This document shows, piece by piece, positions 7,188 to 49,913 of a stretch of DNA of 64,000 nucleotides; within the stretch, counting starts at the first letter, position 1; each line of letters begins with the position of its first letter. Source of the stretch: an uncultured Aminicenantes bacterium (GTDB lineage: Bacteria > Acidobacteriota > Aminicenantia > UBA2199); assembly GCA_965195285.1 (NCBI GenBank), contig CBDAFS010000030.1, forward strand, positions 18,967 through 82,966. The letters run 5' to 3'. A program made the position numbers and the translations under genes. The notes beneath the pieces are model-generated. The model saw nothing but the letters and a program-made list of their open reading frames with translations. It searched no databases and was not told the origin of the DNA.

Positions 7188-7661
7188 TTATGCTCCTCTT
7201 TTGGGTATAAGTACATGACGTCTAAGTGTTAAAACTTTATCATTTTTCTGATTATATGCTCTTGTTTCTACATAAACAATGCCACGATCAAGTTTGCTTT
7301 TTGATTCTCTTATAGACAGAATTTCTGTTTCTGTATAAATTGTATCACCTACAAATACAGGACCATCATGGGTTACTTTTTCATAATCTAAATTAGCAAT
7401 TGCCTTACCACTAATATCTCTAACAGTTAACCCAACAACAAGGCTGAAAACCAATGTACCGACAACAAGAATTTTTCCATATTGTTGACTTTTACAATAT
7501 TCTTTATCAAGGTGTAGTGGATGATGATTCATGGTTATTAATGAAAAAAGATTATTATCACTTTCAGTTATCGTTTTACCGGGCCAGTGTTTGTATAAAT
7601 CACCTACTTTGAATTCATCAAGATATTGCCCAAAGTTTTTTTTCATATCATTTATGTTCAT
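7188..7661 (-). CDS. MaoC-family dehydratase
   Basis: G.Y..EF.VG..Y.H.PG.TITE.DN..F...TMN.HPLH.D hot-dog motif, PVF.GDT. Confidence 0.88.
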   Translation of the reverse strand: MNINDMKKNFGQYLDEFKVGDLYKHWPGKTITESDNNLFSLITMNHHPLHLDKEYCKSQQYGKILVVGTLVFSLVVGLTVRDISGKAIANLDYEKVTHDGPVFVGDTIYTETEILSIRESKSKLDRGIVYVETRAYNQKNDKVLTLRRHVLIPKRGA

Positions 7662-7807
7662 CTATCCTCCAAGAATAGATATTAAAAAAATAATATTTTT
7701 TAAAATGTAATAACATTATCCCAAGGAATCAATAAAAAAATTAAGCAGTGGGTGTTCAACATAAAAAGATCCATAACAAATTGTATAATGACCACTGTTA
7801 AAGAAAA

Positions 7808-8221
7808 TCAGGATTTCATTTTTTTATTAATAAGTCTAATGTTTATTAAATGAAAAATAATAAAGGCAAAAAGAACTCCAATAATATTGAATATGGAATC
7901 TATTATATTAAATCGTCTACCGGGAATAATTTGATGATAAAACTCGATAAAAAAGGCAAAACCGATACCAATGATAAGAAATAAAATCAAGGACTGTAAA
8001 TTTTGTTTGGGTTTGTCGTTTATAATCCATAATAAAAATAATATCGACAGGATAAAAAATTCAAGAAAGTGGATGAGATAGTCGAGACGGATGGTAGTAC
8101 CTCCTGAAGTTTTGATCTTTGGAGTAGGAAGCTGGGGAAGAGAAGAAGCGATGAAGATGAGAATGAGCCAGGTGAAGAAGAGAAGTTTTGAGTTTTGTTT
8201 AATAAATTTGAGTAAGATCAT
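7808..8221 (-). CDS. VanZ-family membrane protein
   Basis: D..IHF.EF, E..Q..IPGR..S/N..D...N..G motifs. Start moved to MILLKF because the track's extension reads repeat DNA. Confidence 0.75.
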   Translation of the reverse strand: MILLKFIKQNSKLLFFTWLILIFIASSLPQLPTPKIKTSGGTTIRLDYLIHFLEFFILSILFLLWIINDKPKQNLQSLILFLIIGIGFAFFIEFYHQIIPGRRFNIIDSIFNIIGVLFAFIIFHLINIRLINKKMKS

Positions 8222-8227
8222 TTTATT

Positions 8228-8460
8228 AACATTGAATAATGAATATCGAATAACGAACACCGAATATCGAAGGAAAGAAATATCTTACAAACCTTGAAAT
8301 TTAAACATCGAACAAAGAATAATAAATGTTGAAGGAAAAGAATCATCTTGAAAACATTGAATAATGAATATCGAATAACGAACACCGAATGTTGAAGGGA
8401 AAAAACATATTATTCATAGTGAATCATGAATATCGAATATCGAATAGCGAAGTGAAAAGG
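8228..8460. repeat. Heptamer tandem-repeat arm (GAATATC/GAATAAC/GAACACC family), left arm of cassette 1
   Basis: gaataat gaatatc gaataac gaacacc gaatatc block occurs twice, plus a third degenerate block. Confidence 0.9.
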
Positions 8461-8461
8461 C

Positions 8462-8833
8462 TCATTTTATATTATCATGTGCTGTTTTTATACTGGAAAC
8501 AAAAATTGAAATCAGTTCATTGCATTCGAGTATAAGATCATCTACTTTATCGGAATGTTTAACAAGCGGTTTCCTTTTAATAATTTTCAGTGCAATGTAT
8601 GTTTCTCTCAATTCCTTGAGTGCGATTTTCATTTTATGGATAAAATCTTTTCCGGACTCTGCACTCTGGGCCTCACCATATATTAAAGCAGGAGCAGTTC
8701 CGGACCTGATTATTTGACCTCCGATATAATTTCCATTTCTTGTATTTGGCAACTGTTCAGCTAAACTTAATATATTAACAGAAAAAGAAATCAATCTTTC
8801 TTCCAAATCATATTTTTTTTTCTCATCAATCAT
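8462..8833 (-). CDS. Four helix bundle protein (TIGR02436 / 23S rRNA IVP / bAvd-like)
   Basis: DLEER...F, Q..RSGT.....Y.EAQ.AES..DF.HK..IALKEL.ET, E..EL..I. Confidence 0.9.
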   Translation of the reverse strand: MIDEKKKYDLEERLISFSVNILSLAEQLPNTRNGNYIGGQIIRSGTAPALIYGEAQSAESGKDFIHKMKIALKELRETYIALKIIKRKPLVKHSDKVDDLILECNELISIFVSSIKTAHDNIK

Positions 8834-8835
8834 GC

Positions 8836-8970
8836 TTCAAAATTCATTATTCAATTTTTATCTTTTTACATTTCGTCATTCATTATTCATCATTCGATAT
8901 TCGATATTCATTGGTTGATAATACTTCATCATTCCTTGTTCGACATTCGTTATTCGATATTCAAAACTTC
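8836..8970. repeat. Inverted heptamer arm (GATATTC/CATCATT family), right arm of cassette 1
   Basis: cattatt catcatt cgatatt cgatatt and cgacatt cgttatt cgatatt are the reverse complement of the left-arm units. Confidence 0.9.
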
Positions 8971-11094
8971 TTATCTCTTGATTGAATCTTGCACGGCAAA
9001 AGTAGCCAGAGATGAAGCATAGAGTTCGTCGAAAGGAATGGGAGAGTGAGAACCGGTTTGGATGGCATTGAAGAAAGCCAATAATTCCTGTTGATGACCC
9101 CGATCCGGTCGTCTCAGCCTGAAAGAAGAGATTTTATTACCGTAAATCTTCATGGATTTGAAATCATTGATGGTCACCGATTGTCCGCTGCAGAAAATTT
9201 CCAAGTATTCGGCCGGCAACCGTCTATGTCCGTTGGAATAGTAGCTGATGGTGGCGATGCTGCCATTGTCAAAACCCAGGCTGATCACCAAGGTATCCTG
9301 AAGGTGAGCCGGATCTCTCAGGCTCTTGGCCGAAATGGATGAGACCTCGCCACCGGACAGGAAGATGACCAGATCCACAAACTGACACACTTCACTGATG
9401 ATTACCCCGCCACCGGTTTCGGGATCATGCACCCAATGGTCTTTGGGAAATTTTTCGCCATTGATCCGGTAATTGATAGCCTTTGGTTTTTCCGGAGGAA
9501 ACAGTTCTTTTGCCTTTTGAATAAAGGGAGCAAAGCGGCGGTTAAAACCTGCCATCAGAACAGGAAGCGGCTGGCTGCGGTTGACCAATAGCCGGTGGGT
9601 TTCCCAGATGCGTTTCAGGTCATCCTTGGTCATGGCCAAAGGCTTTTCTACAAATACATGCTTGCTCATGGTCAGGGCCTTGACAACAAATTCCGCATGG
9701 AGATCGTTTCGGGTGGTGATAAATACCGTGTTGATACGGTCATCGGCAATGATCTCATCGGCATTGCCGGTACTGTAGGCAAAGCCGTATTTGTCAGCTA
9801 CCTGGCGGGCATTGTGGCTTCGGGCCGTAATCACCCCCACCAGATTGCAGTGTTTCCGGATAAACGGTAAAATCGTTTTGCGGGCAAATCCTCCGGCACC
9901 GACAAATCCCACGGCCGGATCGACCGGGTCGGTTGGTTTTTCCTTTAAGGTTACTTTTTTGGAAAGTTCCTTTTCGCTGTCATAATCAATCACCACGCCG
10001 CAAAAAGGCTCGGACCGGCTGAGGATCATGGTGTAGATCTCCGGGGTATCCACCAGGGGAACCGTATGGGAAATCAATTGATCCACCTGTAATTTCTTAT
10101 TATTCAACAATTCAATATAAGATTGCAGATTGCGGTTTTCGGTCCAGCGCACATAGCCGATGGGATAATCCTTTCCCCTTATTTCATAAAAGGGATCTTG
10201 GCTGCCGGGTCCGTAGCCGCAGGACATACGCAAATCCAACTCTTTACGGAAATAGGGTTTACGGTCAAAACCGGTGGCTACTTTTCCGATCACCACCACT
10301 TTTCCTCGCTGGCGACACAATAGCCCGGCCAGATTCACCGGATCGGTGGTGGTGGAATCCGCAGCGATAATGACCGCATCCACCCCGTTTCCCTGAGAAA
10401 TTTCGGAAACGATGTTTTCCAATTCCGGATCAAGGAAATTCAGGGCAGTTATGGTTTTCAAGCCGGCCAACCCATTTACCCGGGCTTTATCACTGTCAAC
10501 TCCTATCACATCCACGCCGGCTGCCTGCAATACCTGGATGACCAGCCGGCCGATCAACCCCAGTCCGATCACCACCGCCTTCTCGCTCAGGCGCAGATCA
10601 GCCTGGCGCACCCCCTGAATGGCAATAGCGGCAATCCCCGCAAAGGCAGCCTGTTTCAAATCGTTTTTCCCGGGGATCTTCACACAGAGGTTCCGGTTGA
10701 CTGCCACCACATCGGCATGCCATGCCCCTTTTCCTGCACAGGCCACTTGATCACCGATTTTGATGTCATTGACCTCGTTGCTGACCGCAATGACTTCTCC
10801 GGAGCAGCTGTTGCCCAGGGTGGAAGATGCTTCAAGCTTGTTCATGACCATACGGTAGGTATCGGCCAAACCGCTCTTCTTGATCTGTTCAATAACCTGA
10901 CTGACCTCGTTTTTTCGGGATATGGCCCGGGCAATATATCCCCCCCGGGCCGCCTTGACCATGTTGCCCTCTTCTCCGCCGCTGATTACCGAATAGTGGT
11001 TTCTCACCAACACCTGGCCCCGGCCTAATACCGGAAAGGGAACTTCCAGAATCCGTATGACACCCTTCATTTTTGTGTAAGTTAGTTGTTGCAC
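8971..11094 (-). CDS. Bi-domain oxidoreductase (Zn-ADH/MDR + Gfo/Idh/MocA), polysaccharide biosynthesis
   Basis: VIGLGLIG, YG PG..D..YE..G.DYP..YVRWTE.RN, VGAGGFA, HVFVEKPLA, GFNRRF. GTG start. Confidence 0.85.
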   Translation of the reverse strand: MQQLTYTKMKGVIRILEVPFPVLGRGQVLVRNHYSVISGGEEGNMVKAARGGYIARAISRKNEVSQVIEQIKKSGLADTYRMVMNKLEASSTLGNSCSGEVIAVSNEVNDIKIGDQVACAGKGAWHADVVAVNRNLCVKIPGKNDLKQAAFAGIAAIAIQGVRQADLRLSEKAVVIGLGLIGRLVIQVLQAAGVDVIGVDSDKARVNGLAGLKTITALNFLDPELENIVSEISQGNGVDAVIIAADSTTTDPVNLAGLLCRQRGKVVVIGKVATGFDRKPYFRKELDLRMSCGYGPGSQDPFYEIRGKDYPIGYVRWTENRNLQSYIELLNNKKLQVDQLISHTVPLVDTPEIYTMILSRSEPFCGVVIDYDSEKELSKKVTLKEKPTDPVDPAVGFVGAGGFARKTILPFIRKHCNLVGVITARSHNARQVADKYGFAYSTGNADEIIADDRINTVFITTRNDLHAEFVVKALTMSKHVFVEKPLAMTKDDLKRIWETHRLLVNRSQPLPVLMAGFNRRFAPFIQKAKELFPPEKPKAINYRINGEKFPKDHWVHDPETGGGVIISEVCQFVDLVIFLSGGEVSSISAKSLRDPAHLQDTLVISLGFDNGSIATISYYSNGHRRLPAEYLEIFCSGQSVTINDFKSMKIYGNKISSFRLRRPDRGHQQELLAFFNAIQTGSHSPIPFDELYASSLATFAVQDSIKR

Positions 11095-11113
11095 AGGTAA
11101 TCTCTCATTTCTT

Positions 11114-11181
11114 TAGTAAGTAGTAGGTAGTAAAAAGTAGGTAGTAAGAAGTAGGTAGTAAGAAGTAAGTAGTAAGAAGTA
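11114..11181. repeat. Heptamer arm (AGTAAGA/AGTAGGT family), left arm of cassette 2
   Basis: tagtaag tagtagg tagtaaa aagtagg tagtaag aagtagg tagtaag aagtaag tagtaag. Confidence 0.92.
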
Positions 11182-11211
11182 AAAAAATAAACGATTTTCT
11201 GAAGACAATAT

Positions 11212-11601
11212 TTACTCCGTAATAATGCAAAACTTTTCAGGCTTATTTATCATTCCAAAAAGAATTCTTCCGAGTTCCTGATATTTTTCATACAATTTCG
11301 TATGCTTTTCTTCCTGAAGATATCCATGTTTGAAAGCAAAATCCAGCCATACTTCTGTCTCACTTGCTTCTCCGATCGAATCGGTTAATTTTAAAACAAA
11401 AGATTTCGGATATCTTCGCTTCGCCCATGCTTCAGTAATGTTAGCGGAAACAGATCGTGATGATCTTCTGATCTGATCAATTAAAGAATATTTTTCTTCT
11501 TTTGGAAAAGTTTTACTGATGTTGAAGATTTCAACCGCTAGATCAAAACTCAACTGATATGCAATCAGATCTCTGTAACCCCGATACATAGTTTTTTCCA
11601 T
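11212..11601 (-). CDS. Four helix bundle protein (S23/23S rRNA IVP family, bAvd-like)
   Basis: YRDL..YQ, FPKEEKYSL.DQIRRSSRSV.ANI.E, GE..ET..WL.FA...GYL. Confidence 0.92.
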   Translation of the reverse strand: MEKTMYRGYRDLIAYQLSFDLAVEIFNISKTFPKEEKYSLIDQIRRSSRSVSANITEAWAKRRYPKSFVLKLTDSIGEASETEVWLDFAFKHGYLQEEKHTKLYEKYQELGRILFGMINKPEKFCIITE

Positions 11602-11605
11602 TATG

Positions 11606-11705
11606 TACTTCTCACTCCCTACTCCTTACTTCTTACTTCTTACTTCTTACTTCTTACTCCTTACTTCTTATTGTTTTTTTTCTACTTACTATATACTACA
11701 TACTA
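11606..11705. repeat. Inverted heptamer arm (TCTTACT family), right arm of cassette 2
   Basis: ccttact tcttact tcttact tcttact tcttact ccttact, the reverse complement of the left-arm family. Confidence 0.92.
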
Positions 11706-12857
11706 GATTTTATAAAATTCTTTATACCATTCCACAAATTTTCGAATTCCCTCTTCCACCGGGGTATCCGGCCTGTATCCGGTATCCTTTTCAAGACTGG
11801 TGGTGTCAGCCCAGGTTTCCAACACATCGCCTTTTTGCAGGGGAAGGAAGTTTTTTTTGGCTTCTTTATTCATGGCCTTTTCAATAGCGGTGATGAATTC
11901 CATCAAGTTTACTGGTTTTCCTCTGCCAATGTTATAGATTTTATACGGGGTGAGGAGCGAGAGGTCGGAGGTGAGGGGCTGGGAGTCTTCGAATGTCGAA
12001 TGATGAATATCGAACGCCGAATTTCGAGTTTTTGATTTTTGATTTACTTCTGAATTCGATATTCGGGATTCGTGATTCGGTGTTCGAAGATTGGGAGTTG
12101 GTGGTCTGTCCATAACCCGGGTGATGCCTTCGATGATGTCATCGATATAGGTGAAATCCCGGCTCATCCGGCCCTGGTTGTAGACATCAATAGGCCGGTT
12201 TTTAATAATGGCCCTGACAAATTTAAAAGCCGCCATGTCCGGCCGACCCCAGGGACCGTATACGGTAAAAAAACGAAGCCCGGTGGTGGGAATTTGGTAG
12301 AGGTGGCTGTAGGCATGGGCCATGAGCTCGCAGCTCTTCTTGCTAGCCGCATACAGAGACATGGGCTGGTCTACCATATCGGCCGTGGTAAAGGGCATTT
12401 TTTGGTTTAGGCCGTATACCGAAGAACTGGAAGCATAGACCAGATGGTTGATCTCATGGTGGCGGCAGGCCTCCAGGATGTTCAGAAAACCTTGGATGTT
12501 GGAGTCCATATAAGCCTGGGGATTTTGCAAAGAATAGCGCACCCCGGCCTGGGCTGCCAGGTGGCAGACCCGGTCGAATGGTTCTTGTTCGAACAGTTCG
12601 GTTATTTTTTCCCGATCCTCCAGGTTTAATTGGATAAACCGGTAATTGTCAAGAGTCTGGCTTTCCACGGGGATTCCATACTGAATTTTCTCCGAATCGA
12701 TTCCGGTGTCCTTCAGCCGGCCGTATTTCAGGTTGACATCATAGTAGTCATTGATATTGTCCAGGCCTATCAGCGTATGACCACTGTTTGCCATCTGTTT
12801 GACCAGGGAATGGCCGATGAATCCGGCGGTTCCAGTTATTAAGATCTTCAAGGTCAA
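11703..12857 (-). CDS. NAD-dependent epimerase (UDP-glucuronate 4-epimerase, WcaG/CapI-like) carrying an internal insertion
   Basis: ITGTAGFIG, HLAAQAGVRYS, YASSSSVYG, YAASKK, GLRFFTVYGPWGRPDMA. TTG start after AGGAG. Confidence 0.92.
   Translation of the reverse strand: MTLKILITGTAGFIGHSLVKQMANSGHTLIGLDNINDYYDVNLKYGRLKDTGIDSEKIQYGIPVESQTLDNYRFIQLNLEDREKITELFEQEPFDRVCHLAAQAGVRYSLQNPQAYMDSNIQGFLNILEACRHHEINHLVYASSSSVYGLNQKMPFTTADMVDQPMSLYAASKKSCELMAHAYSHLYQIPTTGLRFFTVYGPWGRPDMAAFKFVRAIIKNRPIDVYNQGRMSRDFTYIDDIIEGITRVMDRPPTPNLRTPNHESRISNSEVNQKSKTRNSAFDIHHSTFEDSQPLTSDLSLLTPYKIYNIGRGKPVNLMEFITAIEKAMNKEAKKNFLPLQKGDVLETWADTTSLEKDTGYRPDTPVEEGIRKFVEWYKEFYKI
11986..12090. repeat. 105-bp in-frame palindromic heptamer insertion
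   Basis: TCTTCGAA...TTCGAAGA ends, with cgaatgt cgaatga tgaatat cgaacgc facing gatattc gggattc gtgattc ggtgttc. Confidence 0.85.
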
Positions 12858-13084
12858 GGTCTCCTTATATCATAGGTTAAGGTTGAGGTTAAGGTAAAGA
12901 AAAAAACAGAAAATTTTTCCTGATTATCTCTCTTATTCTTTTCCTTTATCTTTACCTCAGTCATCCAATCTTTCCTGCGGCCTTCGGCCGCCTGGGCTTC
13001 CGCCGGTACCCTTTTTCGGGGTTTACCGGGCCAACCAAAAACAGGCTCAAACTCATCAATCTGGCTCATACTGATGATTTTCAT
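12854..13084 (-). CDS. Possible small hypothetical protein
   Basis: ATG downstream of an extended -10, stop overlaps the epimerase start. C-terminus reads through hexamer repeats. Confidence 0.3.
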   Translation of the reverse strand: MKIISMSQIDEFEPVFGWPGKPRKRVPAEAQAAEGRRKDWMTEVKIKEKNKRDNQEKFSVFFFTLTSTLTYDIRRP

Positions 13085-13102
13085 TTATGGCTCAAGTCAG
13101 GA

Positions 13103-13111
13103 ATTATACCA
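13103..13111 (-). promoter_or_regulatory. Extended -10 promoter (TGGTATAAT) heading the polysaccharide locus
   Basis: Perfect TGnTATAAT on the minus strand. Confidence 0.55.
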
Positions 13112-13140
13112 GAAAACAGTAAAATTGAAAGTGAATTCTT

Positions 13141-14109
13141 CTATCTTCTGAATTTTTTTAATTCCCGCTCAAATCCATCAATCATCAGTTTTATTTCATG
13201 GTTCTCAATGGATTCCAGCATAAAACGCCTTACCATCTGGGAAACCGCCACATAATCCATTTCCACCAGTTCCCCGATCTCCCGCAGCCGCAGGTCACTG
13301 TATTTCTTCAAACCATACAGGAACAGCTTTCGGAAGTGGTTGTTTTTGCGCTTTTTGTACAGCAGCTCTCTTTTAACCCTGAAGCGCCGGCATATGATGC
13401 GGGAGATATCTTCGGGTTGGAGCCGCCTCAGACTCTTCAGGGCCGGTTTTTCCCGGATCTCTCCCATTCTCAGGTCAGCCTCTATCTTGCGGGCAATCTT
13501 TCGGCGAAATTTTTCACCGCCTACGATCGACTGCACCCCGTAGAAATCTTCTTTTTTTATCCCCTCATCCTGATTCAGCAGGTCATAGACATACTTGCGG
13601 TAAAATTTCTTTTTGTTATTAAATTCGCTCAGGAGTTCGGCGGTGACCAGCCATAGCGGCCGTTTTTCTCTGCCGATGTAGCGGGCAAAACTGCTCCAGG
13701 GGTAATCTTCGGGTTTTTTAACCTTACCCTCCCGCAACGGGGTCAGGTGGATGTAAGCGCTCAACCTCATCAAATAACCGTTTTTTTCCACCAGAACGGC
13801 CCGGTAGCGGCCCTGGAAAACCGAGCCCTTGACCCCGTACTTGAGCTTGAACCAGTTTGAGTAGCTGGAGTTTAAATGGTGCATACAGCGGGAGAGATTG
13901 CCCTCCGGGGTTTCGATGAGCATGTGGAAACGATCGTCCAGAAGGGTATAGCAGTGGACCTTGAGGTTGAACTTATCCACCACCTCGCCGGTTTTTTCCA
14001 GGAATTTCAGCCGGTCAACCTTTTCATGAAAAATCTTCTCATGCTTGTCTCCCTGGGACATCACATGGTAACAGGCGCCCTTGTACTCTATACGGGGTTG
14101 TCGAGCCAT
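13141..14109 (-). mobile_element. REP-associated tyrosine transposase (RAYT, Y1 HUH family) with C-terminal HTH; HUH motif degenerate
   Basis: MAR.PRI...G..YHV, G.VFQGRY.A.LVE, YIHL.P, PEDY.WSS. Expected N-H-x-H reads D-R-F-H. Confidence 0.85.
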
Positions 14110-14115
14110 TTGAGA

Positions 14116-14144
14116 AATGTATCACAGTAGATTTTAAATGTCAA
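14116..14144 (-). promoter_or_regulatory. Sigma70 promoter of the RAYT gene (probably leaderless)
   Basis: TTGACA-17 bp-TACATT, with the ATG following after 6 nt. Confidence 0.55.
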
Positions 14145-14242
14145 ATGTTAAGACACGTCCCCAAGAGATTTAAAAGAAAAAGTACTCAGGTTGAGGTTAA
14201 GAAAGAAGGTTAAGGTTGAGGTTGAGGAAAAGAAAAAAACCA

Positions 14243-14440
14243 CTGGTCATTAGAACTCTCTGGGGACTTGTCATTATATCTATCAAGTTCTTGTCATTGA
14301 AACCCTCTGATTTTGGTCATTAAGAACTATCATAACATATCATTACAGTTCTCCAGGGTTCTTTATGACGCACGCATTATGTGCTAATGACAAGCTCTCT
14401 ATAGATCTTAATGACACGAGCGAAGCGAGTAAATGACCAG
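14243..14440. repeat. GTCATT/AATGAC periodic palindromic element, copy 1
   Basis: Five (G/A)TCATT then four (A/T)ATGAC at 22-24-nt spacing, CTGGTCATT/AATGACCAG ends. Confidence 0.85.
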
Positions 14441-14544
14441 ATTAGTGATATTCATCTTCAAAACTTCTTATCTTCTGAACTTCTGTCTCCTTAATTCTAA
14501 GGTTAAGGTTAAGAAAAAACTCTGTTTGTTTTTTTTTATCCTGT

Positions 14545-15876
14545 ATGTTACATTTATTTACGAAAAAGAGGAAACTTTCAGTGGAAGCGGAAAAGGAACT
14601 ATATCAACTCAAACAGGAAAACCAGCGGCTGATGCGGGCCCTGGAAGAAGTGTCTATTTTAAACGAGATTGCCATTGCCATCAGCTCCACCCTGTCCCTG
14701 GACCGGATTCTGGACCTGGTGGTGCAGAAGAGCCTTAAACACATGAAGGCCGAACAGGGGGCGGTGCTGTTGCTGGATGAGAACAAAGAGGAAAAACCCT
14801 TCCAGACCATGATCCGGGGCTGGGATACCACCACCGATACCCTGCCCTTCCGTCTGGACACCCAGCTCACCGGCTGGATGCTGAAAAACCGTCAACCCCT
14901 GCGCATCAATGACTTGAAAAAGGATGAGCGCTTCCACCTGGCCGACCCGGAGACCATTCCCATCCGTTCGCTGCTGTGTACGCCCCTAATGTTGAAAGGC
15001 CGCATGATCGGGTTGGTGACCCTGTTTAACAAAAAATCAGAAGAGGAATTCAGCAGTGAAGACCAGCGCATGATCTCTATCATCGCCGCCCAGTCAGCCC
15101 AGATCATTGAAAATGCCCGGCTGCTCAAAGAGGAACAGGAACTGATCAAGATGCAGGAAGAGCTGAGGCTGGCCTTTGAGATTCAGACCAATCTGCTGCC
15201 GGAAAATCCCCCGGCCATAGAGGGATATGACATATTCGGCAAAAGCATCCCGGCCAAGGAAGTGGGGGGGGATTATTTTGATTTTATCCCGGACCGTGAA
15301 ACCCAGCTGGTTTTCTGCCTGGGAGACGTGTCGGGCAAGGGCATGGGAGCGGCCCTGCTCATGGCCAATCTGCAGGCCACCATCCGGGGCCAGTCCCAAC
15401 TTGACCTGTCCATACCCGAATGCATGGGAAACGCCAACCGGCTGCTGTTCCGCAACACCAGCCCTGAGAAATTTGCCACCCTGTTTTACGGCTGGCTGGA
15501 TTACCGGAATCATGAACTCCGTTACTGCAATGCCGGCCATAACCTGCCCATCCTTATGACGGAAAAAAAAGATTTCCAGCTGCTCAGTGAAGGGGGAATC
15601 ATCCTGGGCTGCCTGGAAGCCGTGAGCTTCGAGGAACAGAAAATCCCCATCCGGACCGGAGATATCCTGCTAATCTATTCGGATGGCATCACCGAGGCCC
15701 TGGATGACCATGATCAGGAATTCGGCGAGGCCAGGCTGATGGAGTTGCTGAAGGAAAATATTGCTAAATCCGCCGTAGAGATGATCGACACCATCATTGA
15801 CGGGGTCACCCGTTTCAGCCGGGATGCGCCCCAGACCGATGACATGACCCTGATGATCATCAAACGTATCGGTTAA
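14545..15876 (+). CDS. GAF + PP2C (SpoIIE/RsbU-like) serine phosphatase
   Basis: GAF region, then EVGGDYFD, GDVSGKG, NAGH, YSDGITEA, DDMT. Confidence 0.9.
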   Translation: MLHLFTKKRKLSVEAEKELYQLKQENQRLMRALEEVSILNEIAIAISSTLSLDRILDLVVQKSLKHMKAEQGAVLLLDENKEEKPFQTMIRGWDTTTDTLPFRLDTQLTGWMLKNRQPLRINDLKKDERFHLADPETIPIRSLLCTPLMLKGRMIGLVTLFNKKSEEEFSSEDQRMISIIAAQSAQIIENARLLKEEQELIKMQEELRLAFEIQTNLLPENPPAIEGYDIFGKSIPAKEVGGDYFDFIPDRETQLVFCLGDVSGKGMGAALLMANLQATIRGQSQLDLSIPECMGNANRLLFRNTSPEKFATLFYGWLDYRNHELRYCNAGHNLPILMTEKKDFQLLSEGGIILGCLEAVSFEEQKIPIRTGDILLIYSDGITEALDDHDQEFGEARLMELLKENIAKSAVEMIDTIIDGVTRFSRDAPQTDDMTLMIIKRIG

Positions 15877-15912
15877 ACCAAAGATATTTTTGATATAAAT
15901 GGGGAGGATATC

Positions 15913-16695
15913 ATGTATATGCGTTTGCTTCAATTAAAAATTAAACCCGAAGGCCTTGAACTGGCCCAACATTATTACAAAGACACGGTGGTGCCCCGGT
16001 TACGCACCATGCCGGGATGCCGGTTTGCCCGGCTGATCCAGAACCACTCCGAGCCCAGTGATTTGATATCCATGACCCTGTGGGAACGCCGGCAAGATGC
16101 CGAGGCCTTCCAGCAGAGTCCGGTCTTCAAGCAGATGATGGCCGAGTTTTCCGTATTTTTAGCCGATAGTTCGGTCTGGAAGATACAGTTGAGCCAGAAG
16201 CTGGAACTGGAATACCGGCCCAAAACCCAGGAACCGGTGACCCAGGCCTTCCCGGTATCCACCCAGAAAATCCTGGTCAAGCCGGAAAATTGCGTATCTT
16301 CACCTCTGTTTGTGCGCATTGTCCAGCATAAGATCCAGCCGGGTAAAATGGAAGAATTCCGGAAACTGTACCGGGAAAGCATTATTCCCGTTCTGGAAAA
16401 AACCCGGGGCTGCTGTTCGGCCTATCTGATGGAAAACATGCAGAACGGCGAAGAAGTGGTGTCCATCACCGTCTGGGAAAACCAGCGGGCTGCGGAAGAT
16501 TATGAACAGAGTGGACAGTTTCAGGTATTGATCGACCGGGTCAAACACTGCTACACACGGCTCTTTCAGTGGAAAATGTCTTTGGCCCAAAATGGGGAAA
16601 AGCAGGCCAAGACCAGCGATGATATGCAGGTGGATCATTACACCGTGGTTTCAGGGGAGGAGTTTGGGGATTCACCAACAAAAAACAGGACTTAG
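15913..16695 (+). CDS. Tandem antibiotic-biosynthesis-monooxygenase (ABM) domain protein
   Basis: Two repeats of ...P.L...PG/RGC....L......IS.T.WE....AE.F/Y..S. Confidence 0.75.
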   Translation: MYMRLLQLKIKPEGLELAQHYYKDTVVPRLRTMPGCRFARLIQNHSEPSDLISMTLWERRQDAEAFQQSPVFKQMMAEFSVFLADSSVWKIQLSQKLELEYRPKTQEPVTQAFPVSTQKILVKPENCVSSPLFVRIVQHKIQPGKMEEFRKLYRESIIPVLEKTRGCCSAYLMENMQNGEEVVSITVWENQRAAEDYEQSGQFQVLIDRVKHCYTRLFQWKMSLAQNGEKQAKTSDDMQVDHYTVVSGEEFGDSPTKNRT

Positions 16696-17206
16696 GTTAA
16701 GGTAAAGGTAAAGGTTGAGGTTAAGGTTAAGAAAAAAAATAAAACTATTAAAACCTCCTTAATTTTCATATCTCTTTACCTTTACCTTTGCCTCAACCTT
16801 AGAATTAAGAAGTCAGGAGATAGAAATCCGAAATCCCAAATTCTAAATCCGAAACAAAGAGATTATTAATAAACATTGAATGATGAACACCAAATATTGA
16901 ATGATGAATATCGAATAACGAACACCGAATATCGAAGGAAAGAAATATCTTACAAACCTTGAAATTTGAACATTGAACAAAGAATATCGAATGTCGAAGG
17001 AAAATAATCATCTTAATTAACAGTGAATGATGATCACCGAATGTCGAATCATGAATGTCAAAGTGAAAGATTCATTTTTTTTTACACTTCATCATTCCTT
17101 GTTCGTTATTCATTATTCGAAATTCAAAATTAAATACTATTTTCCTTTACCTTAACTTTTGCCTTTACCTTTACCTTTACCTTTACCTCTACCTTTACCT
17201 TTGCCT
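16693..17206. repeat. Nested repeat mosaic between convergent genes (hexamer arms, AAATCCG heptamers, empty GAATATC cassette)
   Basis: (AGGTWA)n at left, (TTACCT)n at right, heptamer blocks inside. Confidence 0.9.
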
Positions 17207-20200
17207 TTATTTTACCTTTAGTTCAAAGCTCTGTGAATGGCTGTTAAACTCCGGGGCATACATGCATTCGATGTGGGCCATGCCGCTCTGAAACCGGCCC
17301 CGGTGTACCACCCGAAGGGAATATTCAAACACATAGGTCCCCTTGGGCAGGTAATCAATGAAAAAATGGGTGGCTGTATCCAGGGTGGATTCGTAATAAG
17401 CCAGTCCGTCCTGGAACTTATATCGGGATAGCACATTCACCGGTTCCAGGCCGCTGCCCCGATGGTCTTTCATATGGACATACTCCATATCCCGGTCGGT
17501 TCGCAGCTCGATCCGGACCACTAACAGATCACCCACCCCCAGGCTCCCTTGATAGGGTTCGATCATCGGTCCTTTGTCGGTGAAGCGGCGCACAAACAGG
17601 CGCTTCTTCAGTTTCAGGGGATTTCCGGTATGGGGGGTGATTTTTGAGATATCTTCCAGGTACTGCCAGTGAACCCCGCCCCAGGCAATGCCCTTGTCCT
17701 TTTTGGAAACCGTAATCCGGCCCATATCCGCAATAATATCCCGGGGCTGATAGACCTTTTCATAGTAACCGGTCCCGGCTTCCGGTTTTTCGATTTCCAC
17801 CTTTTGGCCACCCAGGGTGACCTCTACCGGTAAATCCGAAGCCAGCAAGTCGTCTCCCCGCAGCAGCACCGCATACACCGCATCGGCAGTGGCCTTGGTG
17901 GTTTTCCAGTCCCGGGCCTGCTTTTGTTTCAGCAGCCACACCTTACATTCCTCAACAGCCTGGTGGTCTCCCATTACTTCATCAAAGGCCTCGATCATCA
18001 CGGCCTGGGTTTCGATGGGAGCCCGGAACCACCACCAGGACAGTTCCGTTTCCCGCCAGTAACGGCCTAATTCCTCATTGAACCGGCTCCTTTCCTTGAT
18101 GGAATGCATGATTTTACGGGCAGTTACCGAATCCCCGAAGCGGTTCAGGGCCAGGGCCAGCTGGGCCTGATTCTGGCGATGGCTCAGCTTCAGCCAGTAC
18201 TCACGGGCCTGTTGGAGAAAATAATCCACGGCTTTCTGGTATTTTGAAGAAAGCGGATGCTTTTTCAGATAATAACTGCGGCCGTACAGGTACAGGGCAA
18301 CCCGGGAACCCAGATTATTGGATTTCAGATGTCCCCTGGACACAATACGGTTGTAGACTTCCAGGATCCGGTTATCCAGGAACCGGATGGCTTTTCCGGT
18401 CAGGTCAAGGGGAATGTCATCCACGCCCAGGTGTCGGAGCCGGCCGAAACCGGTAACAATATAGAGAGTAATATAATGGTTACCCGGTCCCCCCGGAAAC
18501 CAGGGCCAGGAGCCATCACTCAGCTGCATGTCTTCTAATTTCAGGTAGGCGCGTTTCAATTCCCGGTCCAGTCGGTTTTCATCGAAGAGCAGGCCGACCC
18601 GGTGTTTGGCCTGGGTTTCATTTTGGGCCTGCCTCACCCAGGGGCTTTCCCGCAACAACACACTTTTCAGATCCGGGTTTTTTTCCAGGTTGGACTTCAG
18701 AGCCCCGCTTGCCTTCCAGCGGTTAAAAATCCGGTGGATTCGGGGATCGGAATGGGCGATGTGGCGGGCCAGGCCATTGGCATAGAGCCGGTTGAATACC
18801 TGCTCGGAACACTCATGGGGAAATTCCATCAAGTAAGGCAGGGCCTGGACCGCATACCAGGCCGGATTGGAGGTCATCTGAACGGTCAGTCCTTTGTGAA
18901 CCAGGGTTTTAGAGCCGGAGGAAAGGGACAGTTTTCTGAACTCGAACCGTTTTTCCCCCTGCTTGCTGATCCACAGGGGTATGGATTCCCGCACCAACAG
19001 CCGGCGGCTCAAAACCGGCAGAACTCCCTCTTCGCCGTCAGAATATTCTTCAGTGGCACCCACGGCCCGGAAAGCCACCATATCCAACCCATCCGGGACC
19101 TTAATCCGGAATCTCAGGGTCCGGGACTGTTTGGAGGGGATGGAGAAGGTCTGGTCTTTATCCCGGTTGTTCAGGGAATCATCCAGGGAGGTTTCATTCT
19201 GTGGATTAAAAAATTGGAGCCTCAATGACCCGCTTTCCGGTTTATCCGACATATTGGTTACCTTTACGGTGAATTCGAGCTCATCACCCTCCCTTAAAAA
19301 CCGGGGCGGGTTGGGCTGGACCATGAGGTCCTTGCGGGTTATGGAGCGGCCTTCGATGCTGCCGTATTTCATATCAATGGTATGCGCAAAACCGATAAAC
19401 CGCCATTCGGTCAGGGCTTCGGGCATTTTAAATTCAATGGTCACGGACCCGTCCCCGGCGGTCTTCAGATGGGGATAAAAGAAGGCGGTTTCATTTAAAT
19501 TCTTTCTGGCCTGGACTTTGGAAAGATCAATTTTTTTTCCACCCTTATCCCTGTCTCCATTTCGTTTTGTCTCCTTTATGGTGGCATCCTTTCCTCCGGA
19601 AACTCCGTTAATATCTTCGTATGACAGCACCAGGGCCTCCCCAAGCGCTTTACTGAACATTTCTTCGGGCCTTAACACCTTCTGTTTGCTGACATGTCGT
19701 CTGGACCCGTACTGGTAACCGAAGAGGCTCTGGATCACCTCTTGGGGAAAGTGCGCATAATTGGCTGCTGAATATGAATAGCGGACATTCAGGCGGTTGA
19801 TAAAATTTGAGAAATCAATCCCTTGGTTGGAAAACCGCAAACGCAGGGAAGTACTGTCCGCATCGAAAAGGTTTGAAAAACCCTGAAAAAAATGGGGATA
19901 GTACTGGTCCAGTGACACATCATAGAGGGTGGCCACCATTTCCGCGGCCCTGATTTCAGAACCCGGACCCTTGATCTTAAGAGACCAGGTTTCCTTCTGG
20001 CCCGGTTCCAGGGTGGAGCGGAAGGTCTGCCACTGGAGTTGCAGTTGTTTGTTATACCAGGGCACATAGACCCGGGTGGTGGTTTGATACTGGCGATTCT
20101 GCTTGACCAGGGTGGCTACCAGGGTAAATCCACCCCGCAATTTTTCATCGATGGGAATCCTGATCAATCCCTGGGTCTGGCCCGGAGAAGTCCAGGATTT

Positions 20201-23200
20201 TTTCAGCCATTGGTTATCCTTGAATATTTCAATCAGCACCGGTCCCTGTTCATAACCGGTCCCCCACAGGGCTTCGAAGGTCTCACCTACCGGCAGCACC
20301 GCCTGTTTAACGGTAAAATAAAAAGGCAGTTTTACTGGAAAATGTTTTTTATCCTTCTGGTGAACTAAAAAATGCAAATAGGCCCGTACCGGGTTTCCAT
20401 ACCGGTCCTGGCTGGTCAGACAGGCCCGGTATACCCCCGGTTTTAGTTTGGCTTTCACTTCACAGGCATGACCGGAATTTTCTGAAGTCCGGAAAGCCTG
20501 TTTGAATACCCGGCGGCCCGAGGGCCATTTTTTCCAGTCCGGGGAATCTCTGAAGTTTCCCGGCTGGTCCGGAGAAGCGATTTCCATCTCCCGAATACCC
20601 ACTTCACCAATCAGGTCGCGGGGAACAGGTTGTGAAGGCCCTTGCAAGGCGAAAATCTCAACGTTTCCCACAGCCCCTGTTCGCTGACCATTGAGATTGA
20701 TGGTATTGACAGTAATGCATACCGGGCGGTCCTGTTCCTGCCAGTTCTGGCAATTCAGGGAGGCTTCCATTGAGGTATAACCCAAGCGTACCCGGGTTTC
20801 ATCCCCCCTGGTCTCCCCTGCCCCATCGGTCACTTCAGCCTGGAGTTTAAATGAAAAAACCGGTTGGCTGGAACGAGGTAGGCTGAGATCAGGCCGGGCC
20901 CTGAAGGTAATACAGAACTTACCGCTTTTATCGGTTTTCAGGGTACCGTGGATGATTTCCCGGGCTTCAGCCCGTTGTGGCCCCCTGTGCCAGTAATACC
21001 ACCAGTTGGGGAAGCGGACTTCACGCACCACCCGGTAACTGACCCGGGCATGGTCGATGGGGGCCCCGGTGTAGCTGCGAGCCTCACCGCAGACCGTTAC
21101 CCGGTCATTCAGGCGGAACTCACGGTCGGGCAGCTTCAGATCGACCTGAAACTTGGGCCGTTTATAGGCTTCCACCCGGATGGCAGTAACACCCCGGGGA
21201 GAATCGGCAACCAGGGTCATCCGGCCGGTCAGACGGTCCCGGGGAGCCATGAAGGTTCCACTGAAACTGCCAAAATCATTGGAAACCAGTTTCTGCCGGG
21301 CAACTTCCTGGTTGTTGACATCCCGAATACTGACTCCAACCCTCTGGTTGGGAAAAACCCGGTAATTATGAGTCCGGGGATCCAGCTCCAGGCAGATGCC
21401 CTTGAAGCTGATCATTTGACCCGGGCGGTAGAGTGAACGATCGGTGAAGAAAACGGTTTTAAAGCTCCGTTTTTTATGAATTGAATGACCGGGGGAAAGC
21501 CCGGTATCGCAATATAATCCGAGCCGGTCGGAGGTTATTGTCACCAGGCGGTTGTAATTGGTTTCAGACCCGCTTTTTTGTTCCCTGAAATATCCCCTCG
21601 TATCGGTATGCAGGAGCTGTTGTTCATGATATGCCCGGGACTGATAGTCGTAACGGTAAATCCTGACCGCTGCCCCGGAAGCGGGCGTACCGGAAACCGC
21701 ATCCAGGACATAACCTTCAAAAATTCGATTTCGACCCCGCAGTACCAGGGCCACCCGGCTGACCCAGAGCGGGCTGCTCTGGATTTTATTGGAAGTATCG
21801 TTAAAATCCTCTTTATAACTGGCCAAAATCCGGTAAAAACCCGGGCTCATGGCCGGGACCTCAACAGACTGCTTCCGGCTCTGGTAATCCTCGGTAGGCT
21901 TCAATGAAACCGACCATTCTGCCATTGGTTTTTCAGTCAGCATCTGCCGGAGTACTGATTCGGGTAATCGGTTAAACTGTTTTTTATTTTTCCCCTGGAG
22001 ATAGTCTTGCAAGTTGTCCCGGACAATTCTGAAGTTCACTGTCCGGATATTTTTATATTCCACTGTGAACCAATAAGGTTGATCCGGTATGATGACTTTT
22101 TCAGTCTTCAGATGAAACTGCTTTTCCTTGATCCGGGACAGCAGGGCCAGACAATTCTGTCCACCGCGGGATTTGGAAAAATTTTCATGGCCACGGCTGG
22201 CAATCTTAACAGCCTTTATTAACTTTCCCTGTTTTTTCAACTCATGAGCCCGGTAATAAGCGGCCAGACTTGACAATCGGGAATCGGGATAGCTCGACAT
22301 GATTTCCTGTAACCGCTTGCTATAACGATCGGCTACCGCCTCTCCAACGGCTTCATTTCGGACATACCTGAGGCGGTGAATATCAATATCGATGAAGGCA
22401 TCCCGGGTTTTATCATGCCGGTGAAAAAGCATGAGCTTCTGATAGAGCCGCAGGGCTAAATAACGGGGAGAATCGGTATCAATGGTTTTGATGTTCCAGG
22501 CCATGAATTGGGGGGCCGGGGCCAGGGCCGGGCTATCGGACCGGATATCAAAGGCCTGTTCGGGTCTCGCCGCAACCTGTTCACCGGAACTGTAAAAACG
22601 GAGAGCCTCCTGGGCCACAAAATCATACAGGGTCGGACGCAGGCCAATGGGAAGGCTTCCCTTGACTAAGAAATCGTAATAACGATCAACGGGAATTTTT
22701 TTCAAGCGGTTCTCGTCCTTTAAAACAGCCTTGAAGAGTGAGGAAATCTCATCAAACAATTTTGGCAGGTCCCAGGTGGTAAAATCCTTTTCATTCAGCC
22801 CGGCTGTACGGGAACGGTTCAGAAAACGCCAGCGATTGCGGGAAAAATAATGCCAGTACCACTGGGCCTGCACCACCTGCATCAGGGGTCTCATTTCCGG
22901 CCGGACCTGTTCAATCTCCGCTTTCAGCCGGTTAATTTTTTCCTCGGGCCGGTTGCCCTCGATCACCGATTCCAGAACGATTCGCTGGACAAGGGCCTTC
23001 AGGGCCTCCGCCTGTCGGTTCTGATCCAGAGCCAGATTGTATATGCGGTTCAGGTATTTTATCGCTGTTTTGGGCAGTCCGTCTTTTTCGGCCTGGTTGA
23101 CTTTTTTCCATAACACCCGGGGGTCGGTTTCCCTGATATCTCCCTGCTGGCCGATTCCCTGGGACAGCATCAGGACGATTAAAAAAATACAGATAGTAAT

Positions 23201-23218
23201 AAACCTGAATTTGGTCAT
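17207..23218 (-). CDS. Bacterial alpha-2-macroglobulin family protein
   Basis: Signal peptide, FTDRSLYRPG (MG2), RKNLNETAFFYP, PRFLREGD, thioester motif CSEQ, GSWPWF. Confidence 0.92.
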   Translation of the reverse strand: MTKFRFITICIFLIVLMLSQGIGQQGDIRETDPRVLWKKVNQAEKDGLPKTAIKYLNRIYNLALDQNRQAEALKALVQRIVLESVIEGNRPEEKINRLKAEIEQVRPEMRPLMQVVQAQWYWHYFSRNRWRFLNRSRTAGLNEKDFTTWDLPKLFDEISSLFKAVLKDENRLKKIPVDRYYDFLVKGSLPIGLRPTLYDFVAQEALRFYSSGEQVAARPEQAFDIRSDSPALAPAPQFMAWNIKTIDTDSPRYLALRLYQKLMLFHRHDKTRDAFIDIDIHRLRYVRNEAVGEAVADRYSKRLQEIMSSYPDSRLSSLAAYYRAHELKKQGKLIKAVKIASRGHENFSKSRGGQNCLALLSRIKEKQFHLKTEKVIIPDQPYWFTVEYKNIRTVNFRIVRDNLQDYLQGKNKKQFNRLPESVLRQMLTEKPMAEWSVSLKPTEDYQSRKQSVEVPAMSPGFYRILASYKEDFNDTSNKIQSSPLWVSRVALVLRGRNRIFEGYVLDAVSGTPASGAAVRIYRYDYQSRAYHEQQLLHTDTRGYFREQKSGSETNYNRLVTITSDRLGLYCDTGLSPGHSIHKKRSFKTVFFTDRSLYRPGQMISFKGICLELDPRTHNYRVFPNQRVGVSIRDVNNQEVARQKLVSNDFGSFSGTFMAPRDRLTGRMTLVADSPRGVTAIRVEAYKRPKFQVDLKLPDREFRLNDRVTVCGEARSYTGAPIDHARVSYRVVREVRFPNWWYYWHRGPQRAEAREIIHGTLKTDKSGKFCITFRARPDLSLPRSSQPVFSFKLQAEVTDGAGETRGDETRVRLGYTSMEASLNCQNWQEQDRPVCITVNTINLNGQRTGAVGNVEIFALQGPSQPVPRDLIGEVGIREMEIASPDQPGNFRDSPDWKKWPSGRRVFKQAFRTSENSGHACEVKAKLKPGVYRACLTSQDRYGNPVRAYLHFLVHQKDKKHFPVKLPFYFTVKQAVLPVGETFEALWGTGYEQGPVLIEIFKDNQWLKKSWTSPGQTQGLIRIPIDEKLRGGFTLVATLVKQNRQYQTTTRVYVPWYNKQLQLQWQTFRSTLEPGQKETWSLKIKGPGSEIRAAEMVATLYDVSLDQYYPHFFQGFSNLFDADSTSLRLRFSNQGIDFSNFINRLNVRYSYSAANYAHFPQEVIQSLFGYQYGSRRHVSKQKVLRPEEMFSKALGEALVLSYEDINGVSGGKDATIKETKRNGDRDKGGKKIDLSKVQARKNLNETAFFYPHLKTAGDGSVTIEFKMPEALTEWRFIGFAHTIDMKYGSIEGRSITRKDLMVQPNPPRFLREGDELEFTVKVTNMSDKPESGSLRLQFFNPQNETSLDDSLNNRDKDQTFSIPSKQSRTLRFRIKVPDGLDMVAFRAVGATEEYSDGEEGVLPVLSRRLLVRESIPLWISKQGEKRFEFRKLSLSSGSKTLVHKGLTVQMTSNPAWYAVQALPYLMEFPHECSEQVFNRLYANGLARHIAHSDPRIHRIFNRWKASGALKSNLEKNPDLKSVLLRESPWVRQAQNETQAKHRVGLLFDENRLDRELKRAYLKLEDMQLSDGSWPWFPGGPGNHYITLYIVTGFGRLRHLGVDDIPLDLTGKAIRFLDNRILEVYNRIVSRGHLKSNNLGSRVALYLYGRSYYLKKHPLSSKYQKAVDYFLQQAREYWLKLSHRQNQAQLALALNRFGDSVTARKIMHSIKERSRFNEELGRYWRETELSWWWFRAPIETQAVMIEAFDEVMGDHQAVEECKVWLLKQKQARDWKTTKATADAVYAVLLRGDDLLASDLPVEVTLGGQKVEIEKPEAGTGYYEKVYQPRDIIADMGRITVSKKDKGIAWGGVHWQYLEDISKITPHTGNPLKLKKRLFVRRFTDKGPMIEPYQGSLGVGDLLVVRIELRTDRDMEYVHMKDHRGSGLEPVNVLSRYKFQDGLAYYESTLDTATHFFIDYLPKGTYVFEYSLRVVHRGRFQSGMAHIECMYAPEFNSHSQSFELKVK

Positions 23219-23344
23219 CTCGATTCTCCTCGTTTGACTTGGTTATACCACATTTCTCTCAACAAAAAAAAGTCTGTCATTCATGGTTTGACATCTCCGG
23301 GAGTTTGGTCGGACAAGGAGTCCGGATTGGACAGAGGGAAATGA

Positions 23345-23731
23345 AGGTTTAGGTTAAGGTAAAGGTAAAGGTAGAGGTAAAGGTAAAGGTAAAGACGTGA
23401 AACGTAAAGAGTAAAAGGTGAAGACGTAAGGCGTAATACGTAAAGCGTAAAATGTGATTGGTAATTGGTTAACTGTAGGGGCGAATGGAAATTCGCCCAA
23501 TTGTTTATATCGATTTTTCATATTGGTTGTAATAATCATCTCTTTCAGGGCAAACCGCCGTTTGCCCCTACAACAATTTTTCTCCTAATCTAAATTTGTT
23601 TTTGTTTTGAATTTTGGACATTTGAGTTTTGAATTTGTTTCGGATTTAGAATTTGGGATTTCGGATTTGTTTCTTCTGGATTCTTACTTCTGAGTTAAAG
23701 GCAAAGGTAAAGGTAGAGGTAAAGGTAAAAA
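23345..23731. repeat. Nested repeat mosaic (hexamers, ACGTAAA heptamers, REP doublet, CGGATTT heptamers)
   Basis: Directly visible tandem blocks. Confidence 0.9.
23475..23571. repeat. GTAG-family REP doublet (REPIN-like), copy 1
   Basis: GTAGGGGCGAAtggaaaTTCGCCC ... GGGCAAACcgccGTTTGCCCCTAC. Confidence 0.85.
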
Positions 23732-23742
23732 GAAAAAATTGG

Positions 23743-27451: not shown

Positions 27452-27735
27452 AAGATTAACTGAGGAGTTAGAAGACAGAAGAAATAAATCCGAAATTTAA
27501 ATCATTTTAGCTCAGGTTAAGGTAGAGGTTAAGGTTAAGAAAAAAATTGTTGTAGGGGCAAACGGTGGTTTGCCCGAATCAGAAATCTATTACAAATTGA
27601 TCAAAAAAGAATAGGGCGAATTTCCATTCGCCCCTACAGTTAACCAATTACTAATCACATTTTACGCTTTACGTATTACGCCTTACGTCTTTTCCTTTAC
27701 CTCTACCTTTAACTTTACCTTCACCTTAACCTCAG
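27452..27735. repeat. Nested repeat mosaic containing REP doublet copy 2 (27552-27637), inverted relative to the 23.4-kb copy
   Basis: GTAGGGGCAAAC..GTTTGCCC ... GGGCGAA..TTCGCCCCTAC between hexamer arms. Confidence 0.9.
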
Positions 27736-27744
27736 TTTATTTTC

Positions 27745-28305: not shown

Positions 28306-28431
28306 TTTTCCTCCTTTCAAATCGTACTGGTTGTTCAGAAGAATGGTAGTATGGAGAAAAATAAAAGTCAAGGCTGAGATTGAGGTAAAGGTAAAGGCAA
28401 AGGTAGAGGTAAAGGCAAAGAAGGAAAACCG

Positions 28432-28650
28432 CTGGTCATTAGAACTCTCTGACTTTTGTCATTTAGAACTATCATAACTTGTCATTGAAACTCTAAAGAA
28501 CTTGTCATTAAAAAACTATTATAACTTGTCATTATAGTTCTACAGAGCTCTTAATGACGTGAACGCAGTGAACTCATGACGCATGTTTTACATGCTAATG
28601 ACGCACGCATCGCGTGCTAATGACACGAGCGAAGCGAGTAAATGACAAGT
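28432..28650. repeat. GTCATT/AATGAC periodic palindromic element, copy 2
   Basis: GTCATT at 28435/28458/28481/28504/28528; (A/C)ATGAC at 28553/28575/28597/28619/28641. Confidence 0.88.
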
Positions 28651-49910: not shown

Positions 49911-49913
49911 TTT

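Follow-up and report, generated by a model that had tools for sequence, protein, structure and literature searches.

An inverted-heptamer element in frame in the variable loop of an Aminicenantes epimerase gene, and its intergenic relatives

The epimerase gene and the element inside it

The DNA analysed here, referred to below as the window, is a stretch of 64,000 nucleotides from an uncultured Aminicenantes bacterium. One of its minus-strand genes encodes a nucleotide-sugar epimerase and contains, in frame, an imperfect palindrome built of short repeats. The features concerned are as follows:

11703 to 12857, minus strand: intact gene for a 384-aa nucleotide-sugar epimerase, NAD-dependent and of UDP-glucuronate 4-epimerase type (WcaG/CapI/Uge)
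11944 to 11985, minus strand: older C-rich heptamer run of six units, encoding residues 292–305; the element lies in 7-base phase within this run
11986 to 12090, no strand assigned: inverted-heptamer element, an imperfect palindrome in frame (105 nt = 35 codons = 15 × 7, residues 257–291); copy, without the gene, of the GAATATC-family cassette
11991 to 12025, plus strand: arm 1 of the element, five degenerate heptamer units of the GAAYNNN family, 4 of the 5 found exactly in the intergenic unit pool
12026 to 12050, plus strand: T-rich spacer of 25 nt, the loop of the hairpin, ending in an ACTTC junction common to the intergenic copies
12051 to 12085, minus strand: arm 2 of the element, five units of the GAAYNNN family on the opposite strand, 2 of the 5 found exactly in the intergenic pool
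12091 to 12104, minus strand: two more units of the older C-rich run, which the element separates from the other six, with the second TGGGAG

The open reading frame of the epimerase consists of 384 codons without an internal stop, and its start is preceded by AGGAG, which resembles a ribosome-binding site. The product matches the Pfam Epimerase family (E=6.5e-54) and carries the motifs GxxGxxG at residue 9, SSS at 142, and YxxxK at 169. Its closest solved relative is Klebsiella 5U4Q (E=2.6e-128), the alignment being split exactly at the loop discussed below (residues 256–290), and the next relative by fold is a Bacillus UDP-glucuronate 4-epimerase. By its motifs and its SDR fold, the protein is a UDP-glucuronate 4-epimerase-like extended SDR; its probable substrate is suggested by these solved and fold relatives and by the source names of its homologues. 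It keeps 162 of the 173 columns that are conserved in 90 outgroup sequences, and, of the 11 that it misses, three are inside the loop and the other eight are common to its relatives. An identical sequence of 363 aa (P0002) exists on a separate contig of 2,528 nt, which argues against an assembly slip. No promoter or terminator was found inside the insert, the counts over 10900–13200 being at chance level.

An earlier note on this DNA had described a stop-free, translated palindrome of 105 nt at this place in the gene, and its length, its division into 35 codons or 15 heptamers, its ends, and the peptide first read from it (residues 257–291) all proved correct: the element opens with TCTTCGAA at 11986 and closes at 12090 with the reverse complement of that sequence. 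Runs of at least three units of the family number 11 in the window, against a mean of 0.08 and a maximum of 1 in 50 base shuffles. The RNA of the coding strand from 11940 to 12110 (minus strand) folds at −28.2 kcal/mol (z = −3.49), with none of 200 shuffles equally good, and the DNA of the same interval gives z = −2.86, with 2 of 200 shuffles equally good. The palindrome is not, however, a true inverted duplication. When the arms are paired with each other, 18 of the 20 constant unit positions match, as against 5 of the 15 variable ones; the hairpin is interrupted by an internal loop every 7 nt, and its longest unbroken stem is 8 bp. A true inverted duplication was rejected on the basis of the variable positions and the short stem, and the arms are two separately degenerate runs that face each other, without inverted copying.

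Random arms drawn from the 41 intergenic units of the window are stop-free in the frame of the element 49% of the time, so that its stop-free state is weak evidence. Selection for the frame may be supposed on general grounds; the same 49% would be obtained without selection, and searches of full-length proteins favour in-frame alleles.

TGGGAG on both sides of the element and a second heptamer run beside it had also been pointed out, and both are present (TGGGAG at 11980 and 12092, the run at 11950–11985). The target duplication that this implied did not hold, since the two copies of TGGGAG, at a distance of 112 nt, are adjacent units of the older heptamer run. Because 112 is not a multiple of 3, the pair cannot delimit a frame-keeping insertion: deletion of the element plus one copy of TGGGAG leads to a stop at residue 279, whereas the frame stays open, and the loop has 32 residues, if only the 105 nt are deleted. 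TGGGAG was consequently rejected as a target-site duplication, and the insert has no usable one. In a common register, the loop without the 105 nt is identical to the 32-residue loop of the homologue P0008 at 9 of 18 positions. In P0003, the closest relative, the loop ends in TFE-x-SQP, as does that of the window protein; consequently, this boundary may predate a single 105-nt event, or P0003 may have overwritten the same element.

A search of Rfam gave no match over the insert, the five weak matches in 7500–17500 all being elsewhere. This interval contains no rRNA match, and the element sits in a protein gene, not in an rRNA precursor. Nor did the insert present the signs of a self-splicing intron or of ribosome bypass, namely a recognisable catalytic RNA fold or a stop flanked by matching take-off and landing codons in frame.

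Intergenic relatives and the four-helix-bundle cassettes

Three further features of the window bear on the source of the insert:

16866 to 17129, no strand assigned: gene-less sister element, intergenic, made up of three repeat blocks, a spacer, and an inverted arm; its inner part, 17034 to 17128, is the closest relative of the insert
8208 to 8966, minus strand: full cassette of the repeat family of the insert, with inverted heptamer arms around a four-helix-bundle gene at 8462 to 8833 (123 aa)
11114 to 11682, minus strand: second cassette, directly downstream of the epimerase, with a four-helix-bundle gene at 11212 to 11601 and inverted arms of the TACTTCT heptamer family

The insert has a common origin with the intergenic copies. 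With the epimerase gene masked, it aligned colinearly from end to end with 17034–17128 (68 of 104 columns), with scores of 84 and 87, where the best of 30 shuffles reached 68, and a 19-nt stretch of it matched 17038–17056 at 18 positions, where 0.01 such matches are expected by chance. The T-rich spacer and the ACTTC junction are common to the insert and the intergenic copies, and 6 of the 10 arm units have an exact counterpart in the intergenic pool (binomial 2.4e-4, base composition being ignored). In a comparison limited to three copies, the arms belong to one family and the inner ACTTC is common, and the outer ends of the insert differ from those of 17034–17128. When the peptide of the insert was searched in six frames against the masked window, the region of 17034–17128 was again the best match, if narrowly (score 55 against a maximum of 50 in 25 shuffles).

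The gene at 8462–8833 matches TIGR02436 (E=1.5e-20) and Pfam 23S_rRNA_IVP. The gene-less 16866–17129 is identical to the two ends of the cassette around this gene at 168 of 208 and 55 of 70 columns and is a version of the cassette that lacks the gene. The gene of the second cassette matches TIGR02436 (E=7.6e-31) and, weakly and below the cut-off, Avd. Both cassettes interrupt a run of polysaccharide genes on the minus strand, each with its own heptamer family. At the first of them, the longest open reading frame of a VanZ-family gene begins inside the repeat arm (8222–8260, minus strand), so that 13 residues at its N-terminus come from the repeat; the ATG at 8221 is probably where this gene really starts.

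The intergenic spaces 14180–14520, 16690–17220, 23330–23740, 27500–27740, and 28340–28700 are stacks of nested repeat families, with runs of the hexamer AGGTTA/TTTACC, several heptamer runs, and short palindromes of the GTAG type. The segments 23408–23506 and 27606–27704 are 93% complementary, and 14409–14479 and 28618–28688 are 85% identical. A bacterial alpha-2-macroglobulin of 2003 aa is encoded at 17207–23218 (minus strand).

The inverted heptamer layout around four-helix-bundle genes is general. Nineteen such genes were examined (two from the window, five from 80 GTDB loci, and 12 of 36 plasmid matches), and, in 12 of them, the upstream flank paired best with its own downstream flank, over every cross-locus pairing; two were tied, two had a direct repeat, and three had nothing. 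The sequence of the heptamer unit around these genes varies from locus to locus. The DNA of the cassettes had no match among the plasmids. On a plasmid of Nostoc punctiforme, the four-helix-bundle gene (L085, 401–808) has a 21-nt in-frame insert relative to that of L081, and four other plasmid matches are similarly longer. In Pseudanabaena (L089, 398–757), the gene lies between cas6 and cas4, and its heptamer flanks are direct, not inverted.

In 1.38 Mb, 41 heptamer runs are intergenic, 6 are at gene edges, and 4 are inside genes, the insert accounting for 2 of these 4. In the 64-kb window, 2 of the 16 period-7 segments are inside a gene, and both are in the insert. The ribosomal protein operon at 49503–63849 (L3 to L17) is without period-7 runs.

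The loop in homologues and close relatives

The insert falls in a loop whose length was counted between the anchors RDFTYxxD and YNIG. The site is indeed the variable loop that precedes PYxIYNIG. The loop of the window epimerase has 67 residues, against the usual 32–35, in an open frame; repeat DNA has made new in-frame sequence here, as the earlier note had supposed. The result that would have refuted its reading, a loop of equal length and similar sequence in homologues from genomes without these repeats, was not obtained: among 120 homologues, 109 have loops of 32 or 35 residues, three of 25, one of 33, and six of 54–80 (one of these being the window's own sequence), with one unmeasurable; at 80 GTDB loci, 74 of the 75 measurable loops have 21–37 residues and one has 55, the other five loci being unmeasurable.

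The loops of the closest relatives differ from that of the window protein. P0003 is 94.5% identical to it outside the loop and has a loop of 69 residues, in which 16 of 61 columns are identical; P0005 is 91.9% identical outside a loop of 25 residues (5 of 50 columns), and P0004 is 90.6% identical outside a loop of 66 residues (16 of 50 columns). The loop of P0006 also has 25 residues. P0003, P0005, and P0004 group with the window protein with a support of 100/97, in a tree of 21 rows whose bootstrap is rough. In a scan of GTDB, no member of this close clade was among the at least 600 matches listed, the best segments being 45–65% identical.

A heptamer-coding test, which is based on peptides only, asks whether 7-periodic DNA could encode a loop peptide better than shuffled versions of it. 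Eight of nine clade loops pass this test (z from 2.5 to 7.7), with P0010 failing, against none of 20 ordinary loops reaching 2.5 (the highest is 2.3). None of four other long or odd loops (P0083, P0130, P0132, and P0144) passes and, among 120 short fragments, P0389 alone does (z of 5.0). The test recovers the true units in the case of the window's own loop, and the best-fitting units differ between proteins. The loop of P0004 fits two successive runs, the first rich in purines and the second, roughly complementary to it, rich in pyrimidines. That of P0003 has its best match in another intergenic repeat block of the window, 14457–14561, by a narrow margin (score 58 against a shuffle maximum of 53); in the same kind of six-frame matching to the window repeats, the loops of P0004, P0007, P0008, P0009, and P0389 scored no higher than their own shuffles. 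The loop lengths of 4 of the 10 clade members depart from 25+7n residues.

These comparisons suggest that the loops of the relatives probably originate from repeats, and an order of events can tentatively be read from them (see below). If the relatives do carry other repeat-derived loops at the same spot, the loop would be a tolerated landing site and not a new functional domain. It is also lengthened by non-repeat routes, since long loops without a heptamer signal exist: three of 52–71 residues, among 150 representatives (50%-representatives), gave no such signal.

Larger changes are found at the same spot in two other proteins. In P0262, a complete DUF559 domain (endonuclease-like, E=6.7e-32) lies in frame in this loop. 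In P0251, a heptamer-coded insert in the loop is followed by a frameshift, with the loss of ~80 residues at the C-terminus; 11 of 14 residues of the shifted tail can be recovered, against a maximum of 10 in 200 shuffles, and the frameshift could also be a sequencing error. The insert of P0251 was not called an inverted pair, as its left half fits no heptamer well. A Prolixibacteraceae epimerase (L035, 10007–12299) has a loop of 55 residues and two tandem duplicates of its 3′ end, with a long heptamer array upstream (9082–9731) and a DUF559 gene downstream; its loop, hairpin-like by eye, contains no inverted repeat of at least 14 nt. The N-terminal extension of P0088 looks repeat-like, and the loop of P0144, which failed the whole-loop test, has a short heptamer-fitting stretch (9 of 10 residues).

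The structural modelling that had been suggested agrees with an insertion that leaves the fold intact. In an AlphaFold2 model based on 99 sequences (pTM 0.81), the SDR fold is kept, and residues 257–301, which are without secondary structure, are the only segment with a pLDDT below 50, a value that is expected for any insert without alignment depth and that does not in itself prove disorder. The insert is thus predicted to be disordered on an intact fold. Its peptide, searched as the region 236–315, was found in no other family: the 120 listed of 186 matches are all epimerases, in proteins of 211–672 aa.

Origin and fate of the insert

The explanation that best fits these observations, with a probability of about 0.72, is that the insert is translated and tolerated, and that it arrived via recombination or template switching between similar heptamer units. 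The surface loop that runs from the last helix of the NAD-binding domain to the PYxIYNIG strand would tolerate almost any length. In this lineage, it would first have been taken over by a short heptamer run, and a gene-less copy of the inverted-heptamer cassette would then have entered the older run with the 7-base phase preserved, most likely by such an exchange between similar units and not by means of a target-duplicating transposase. This route is suggested by the in-phase nesting, the absence of a duplication, and the ragged outer ends. The surviving alleles would be those whose length has changed by a net multiple of three without the gain of a stop, and 15 heptamers, which make 35 codons, would qualify. 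The mRNA would be read straight through, and the enzyme would carry a disordered, probably neutral loop some 32–42 residues longer than usual.

Another explanation, although an unlikely one, is non-autonomous transposition of the MITE or REPIN type, in which the element is moved in trans by a RAYT-like protein (13141–14109, minus strand). This Y1-type transposase gene is only 283 nt upstream of the epimerase, the ends of the insert are inverted, and gene-carrying and gene-less versions coexist; moreover, REPINs are non-autonomous inverted pairs that insert into or beside one another and so become nested, according to the accessible part of PMC3116915. However, there is no frame-keeping target duplication, the TCTTC/GAAGA termini differ from those of the sister copy, and the RAYT-like gene both scores 61.8 bits, which is under the 80-bit NCBIfam cut-off, and is flanked by hexamer runs, which are another repeat family. 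That its product has an Arg at what we take to be the position of the first His of the HUH motif also counts against transposition. The RAYT-like protein has a DnaA-type C-terminal helix-turn-helix, and the hexamer runs that flank its gene are in the same orientation.

It is rather improbable that the hairpin is an RNA processing site, at which RNase III or the neighbouring four-helix-bundle proteins would cut or destabilise the operon mRNA. Such processing would tune expression without shortening the protein and is compatible with the translated insertion. It would be in keeping with the fold of the coding strand (z = −3.49), with the two four-helix-bundle cassettes in the epimerase's run of minus-strand genes, and with the case of Coxiella, where, in the available text of PMC4990558, tandem heptamers precede the S23p ORF and the terminal stem is cut by RNase III. 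That stem is a near-perfect one of 28 bp, however, as against 8 bp for the longest unbroken stem of the insert; the variable positions of the arms are uncompensated (5 of 15), and the 25-residue loops of P0005 and P0006 leave no room for a hairpin.

A palindrome made in place, without a donor, is very unlikely. Slippage would have expanded the older run, and a fold-back replication error would have given the inverted arm; this would account for the element being in phase with the older run, for the coding-strand arm being C-rich likewise, and for only 2 of the 5 units of that arm being in the intergenic pool. A fold-back would, however, leave complementary variable positions, and the match of 5 in 15 largely refutes it; the 18-of-19 match to 17038–17056 (0.01 expected), together with the common spacer and ACTTC junction, argues in addition for a donor. 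It is scarcely to be expected that the gene is decaying and that the insertion is damage: in P0251, a repeat insertion at the same loop does end in a frameshift, but here the frame is open, the catalytic motifs are present, 162 of 173 conserved columns are kept, and AGGAG precedes the start. The removal or skipping of the insert by splicing or ribosome bypass, which the earlier note had offered as an alternative and which would give an enzyme of normal length, has almost nothing to recommend it: although cutting exactly 105 nt leaves an open frame and a 32-residue loop, and matching hexamers lie on both sides of the hairpin, no intron or other Rfam family covers the insert, the hexamers are 112 nt apart and out of frame, no stop is present to bypass, the stem has only 8 unbroken pairs, the excision of an IVS leaves rRNA in pieces (PMC4990558, as far as its text is available), and removal is unnecessary because the loop tolerates a domain of 100 residues (P0262).

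The translated and tolerated insertion leads to a broader proposal, which is speculative and has the odds against it. Four-helix-bundle (S23p/Avd-like) genes with locus-specific inverted heptamer runs might constitute a mobile family that crosses phyla and needs neither a transposase nor target duplication to spread, moving by in-phase recombination into existing heptamer runs. Gene-less derivatives might then act as a natural loop-randomising system, a heptamer-seeded coding loop being a hot spot at which new peptides of 30–45 residues appear in less time than the remainder of the protein needs to drift by 5–10%, and the hairpin might provide the four-helix-bundle protein or RNase III with a handle on the host mRNA.

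The locus offers a clean natural case of the conversion of non-coding repeat DNA into protein sequence, with the donor, its gene-carrying parent, and the allele series of the relatives in view. It makes testable both the way in which inverted heptamer runs that flank four-helix-bundle genes move and the pace at which a seeded permissive loop turns over. It is also a warning that such loops, and N-terminal extensions, are repeat debris in annotations and alignments. A new enzyme function is not indicated; the importance of the case lies in the visible donor cassette and in the fast, repeated rewriting of one loop.

The nesting of the insert can be compared with the STRR and small dispersed repeats of cyanobacteria; Elhai, in 2008, reportedly described small repeats inserted into the heptamer runs of Nostoc. 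In the literature searched, mostly without subscription papers, no link between four-helix-bundle genes and heptamers was found outside rRNA. Within rRNA, heptamers precede the S23p ORF in the 23S IVS of Coxiella, which has terminal inverted repeats and a terminal stem of 28 bp, and its excision by RNase III results in fragmented rRNA (PMC4990558, in the part available). The cassettes at 8208–8966 and 11114–11682 resemble it in having a TIGR02436/PF05635 gene between inverted heptamer runs, but their neighbours are protein genes of a polysaccharide cluster, and the insert, unlike the IVS, has no ORF of its own (only the 25-nt spacer) and lies in the coding region of an mRNA.

Short degenerate heptamer runs, often in convergent pairs, are also known from Xanthomonas and Nostoc (PMC4692102) and from Geobacter (PMC2700814); most of them are intergenic, and some are intragenic. 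The repeats of the window are of this kind; in the accessible portions of both papers, however, no link to four-helix-bundle genes and no repeated in-frame replacement of one loop is described. With REPINs and MITEs, as far as the former are covered by the accessible part of PMC3116915, the insert shares the form of an inverted pair nested in another repeat run, but it has no target duplication or fixed target motif, and probably neither a constant terminal repeat nor a matching transposase.

The precedent of Rickettsia, which the earlier note had invoked, applies to the way in which the insert works but not to membership. RPEs are palindromic repeats of ~100–150 nt that are found in frame in genes and also between genes, and they encode a conserved peptide in many unrelated genes (PMC10969869, in the text accessible). 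The insert, too, is a palindromic repeat in frame inside a metabolic gene, with relatives between genes. In contrast to that account of RPEs, it is built of degenerate heptamers, is present in one gene of the 64-kb window, and encodes an unconserved peptide, which was found in no other family among the 120 matches listed and is not kept even in the closest relatives. The coding insertion of palindromes is thus already known from the RPEs; less ordinary are the cassette that served as source and the turnover, again and again, of a single loop.
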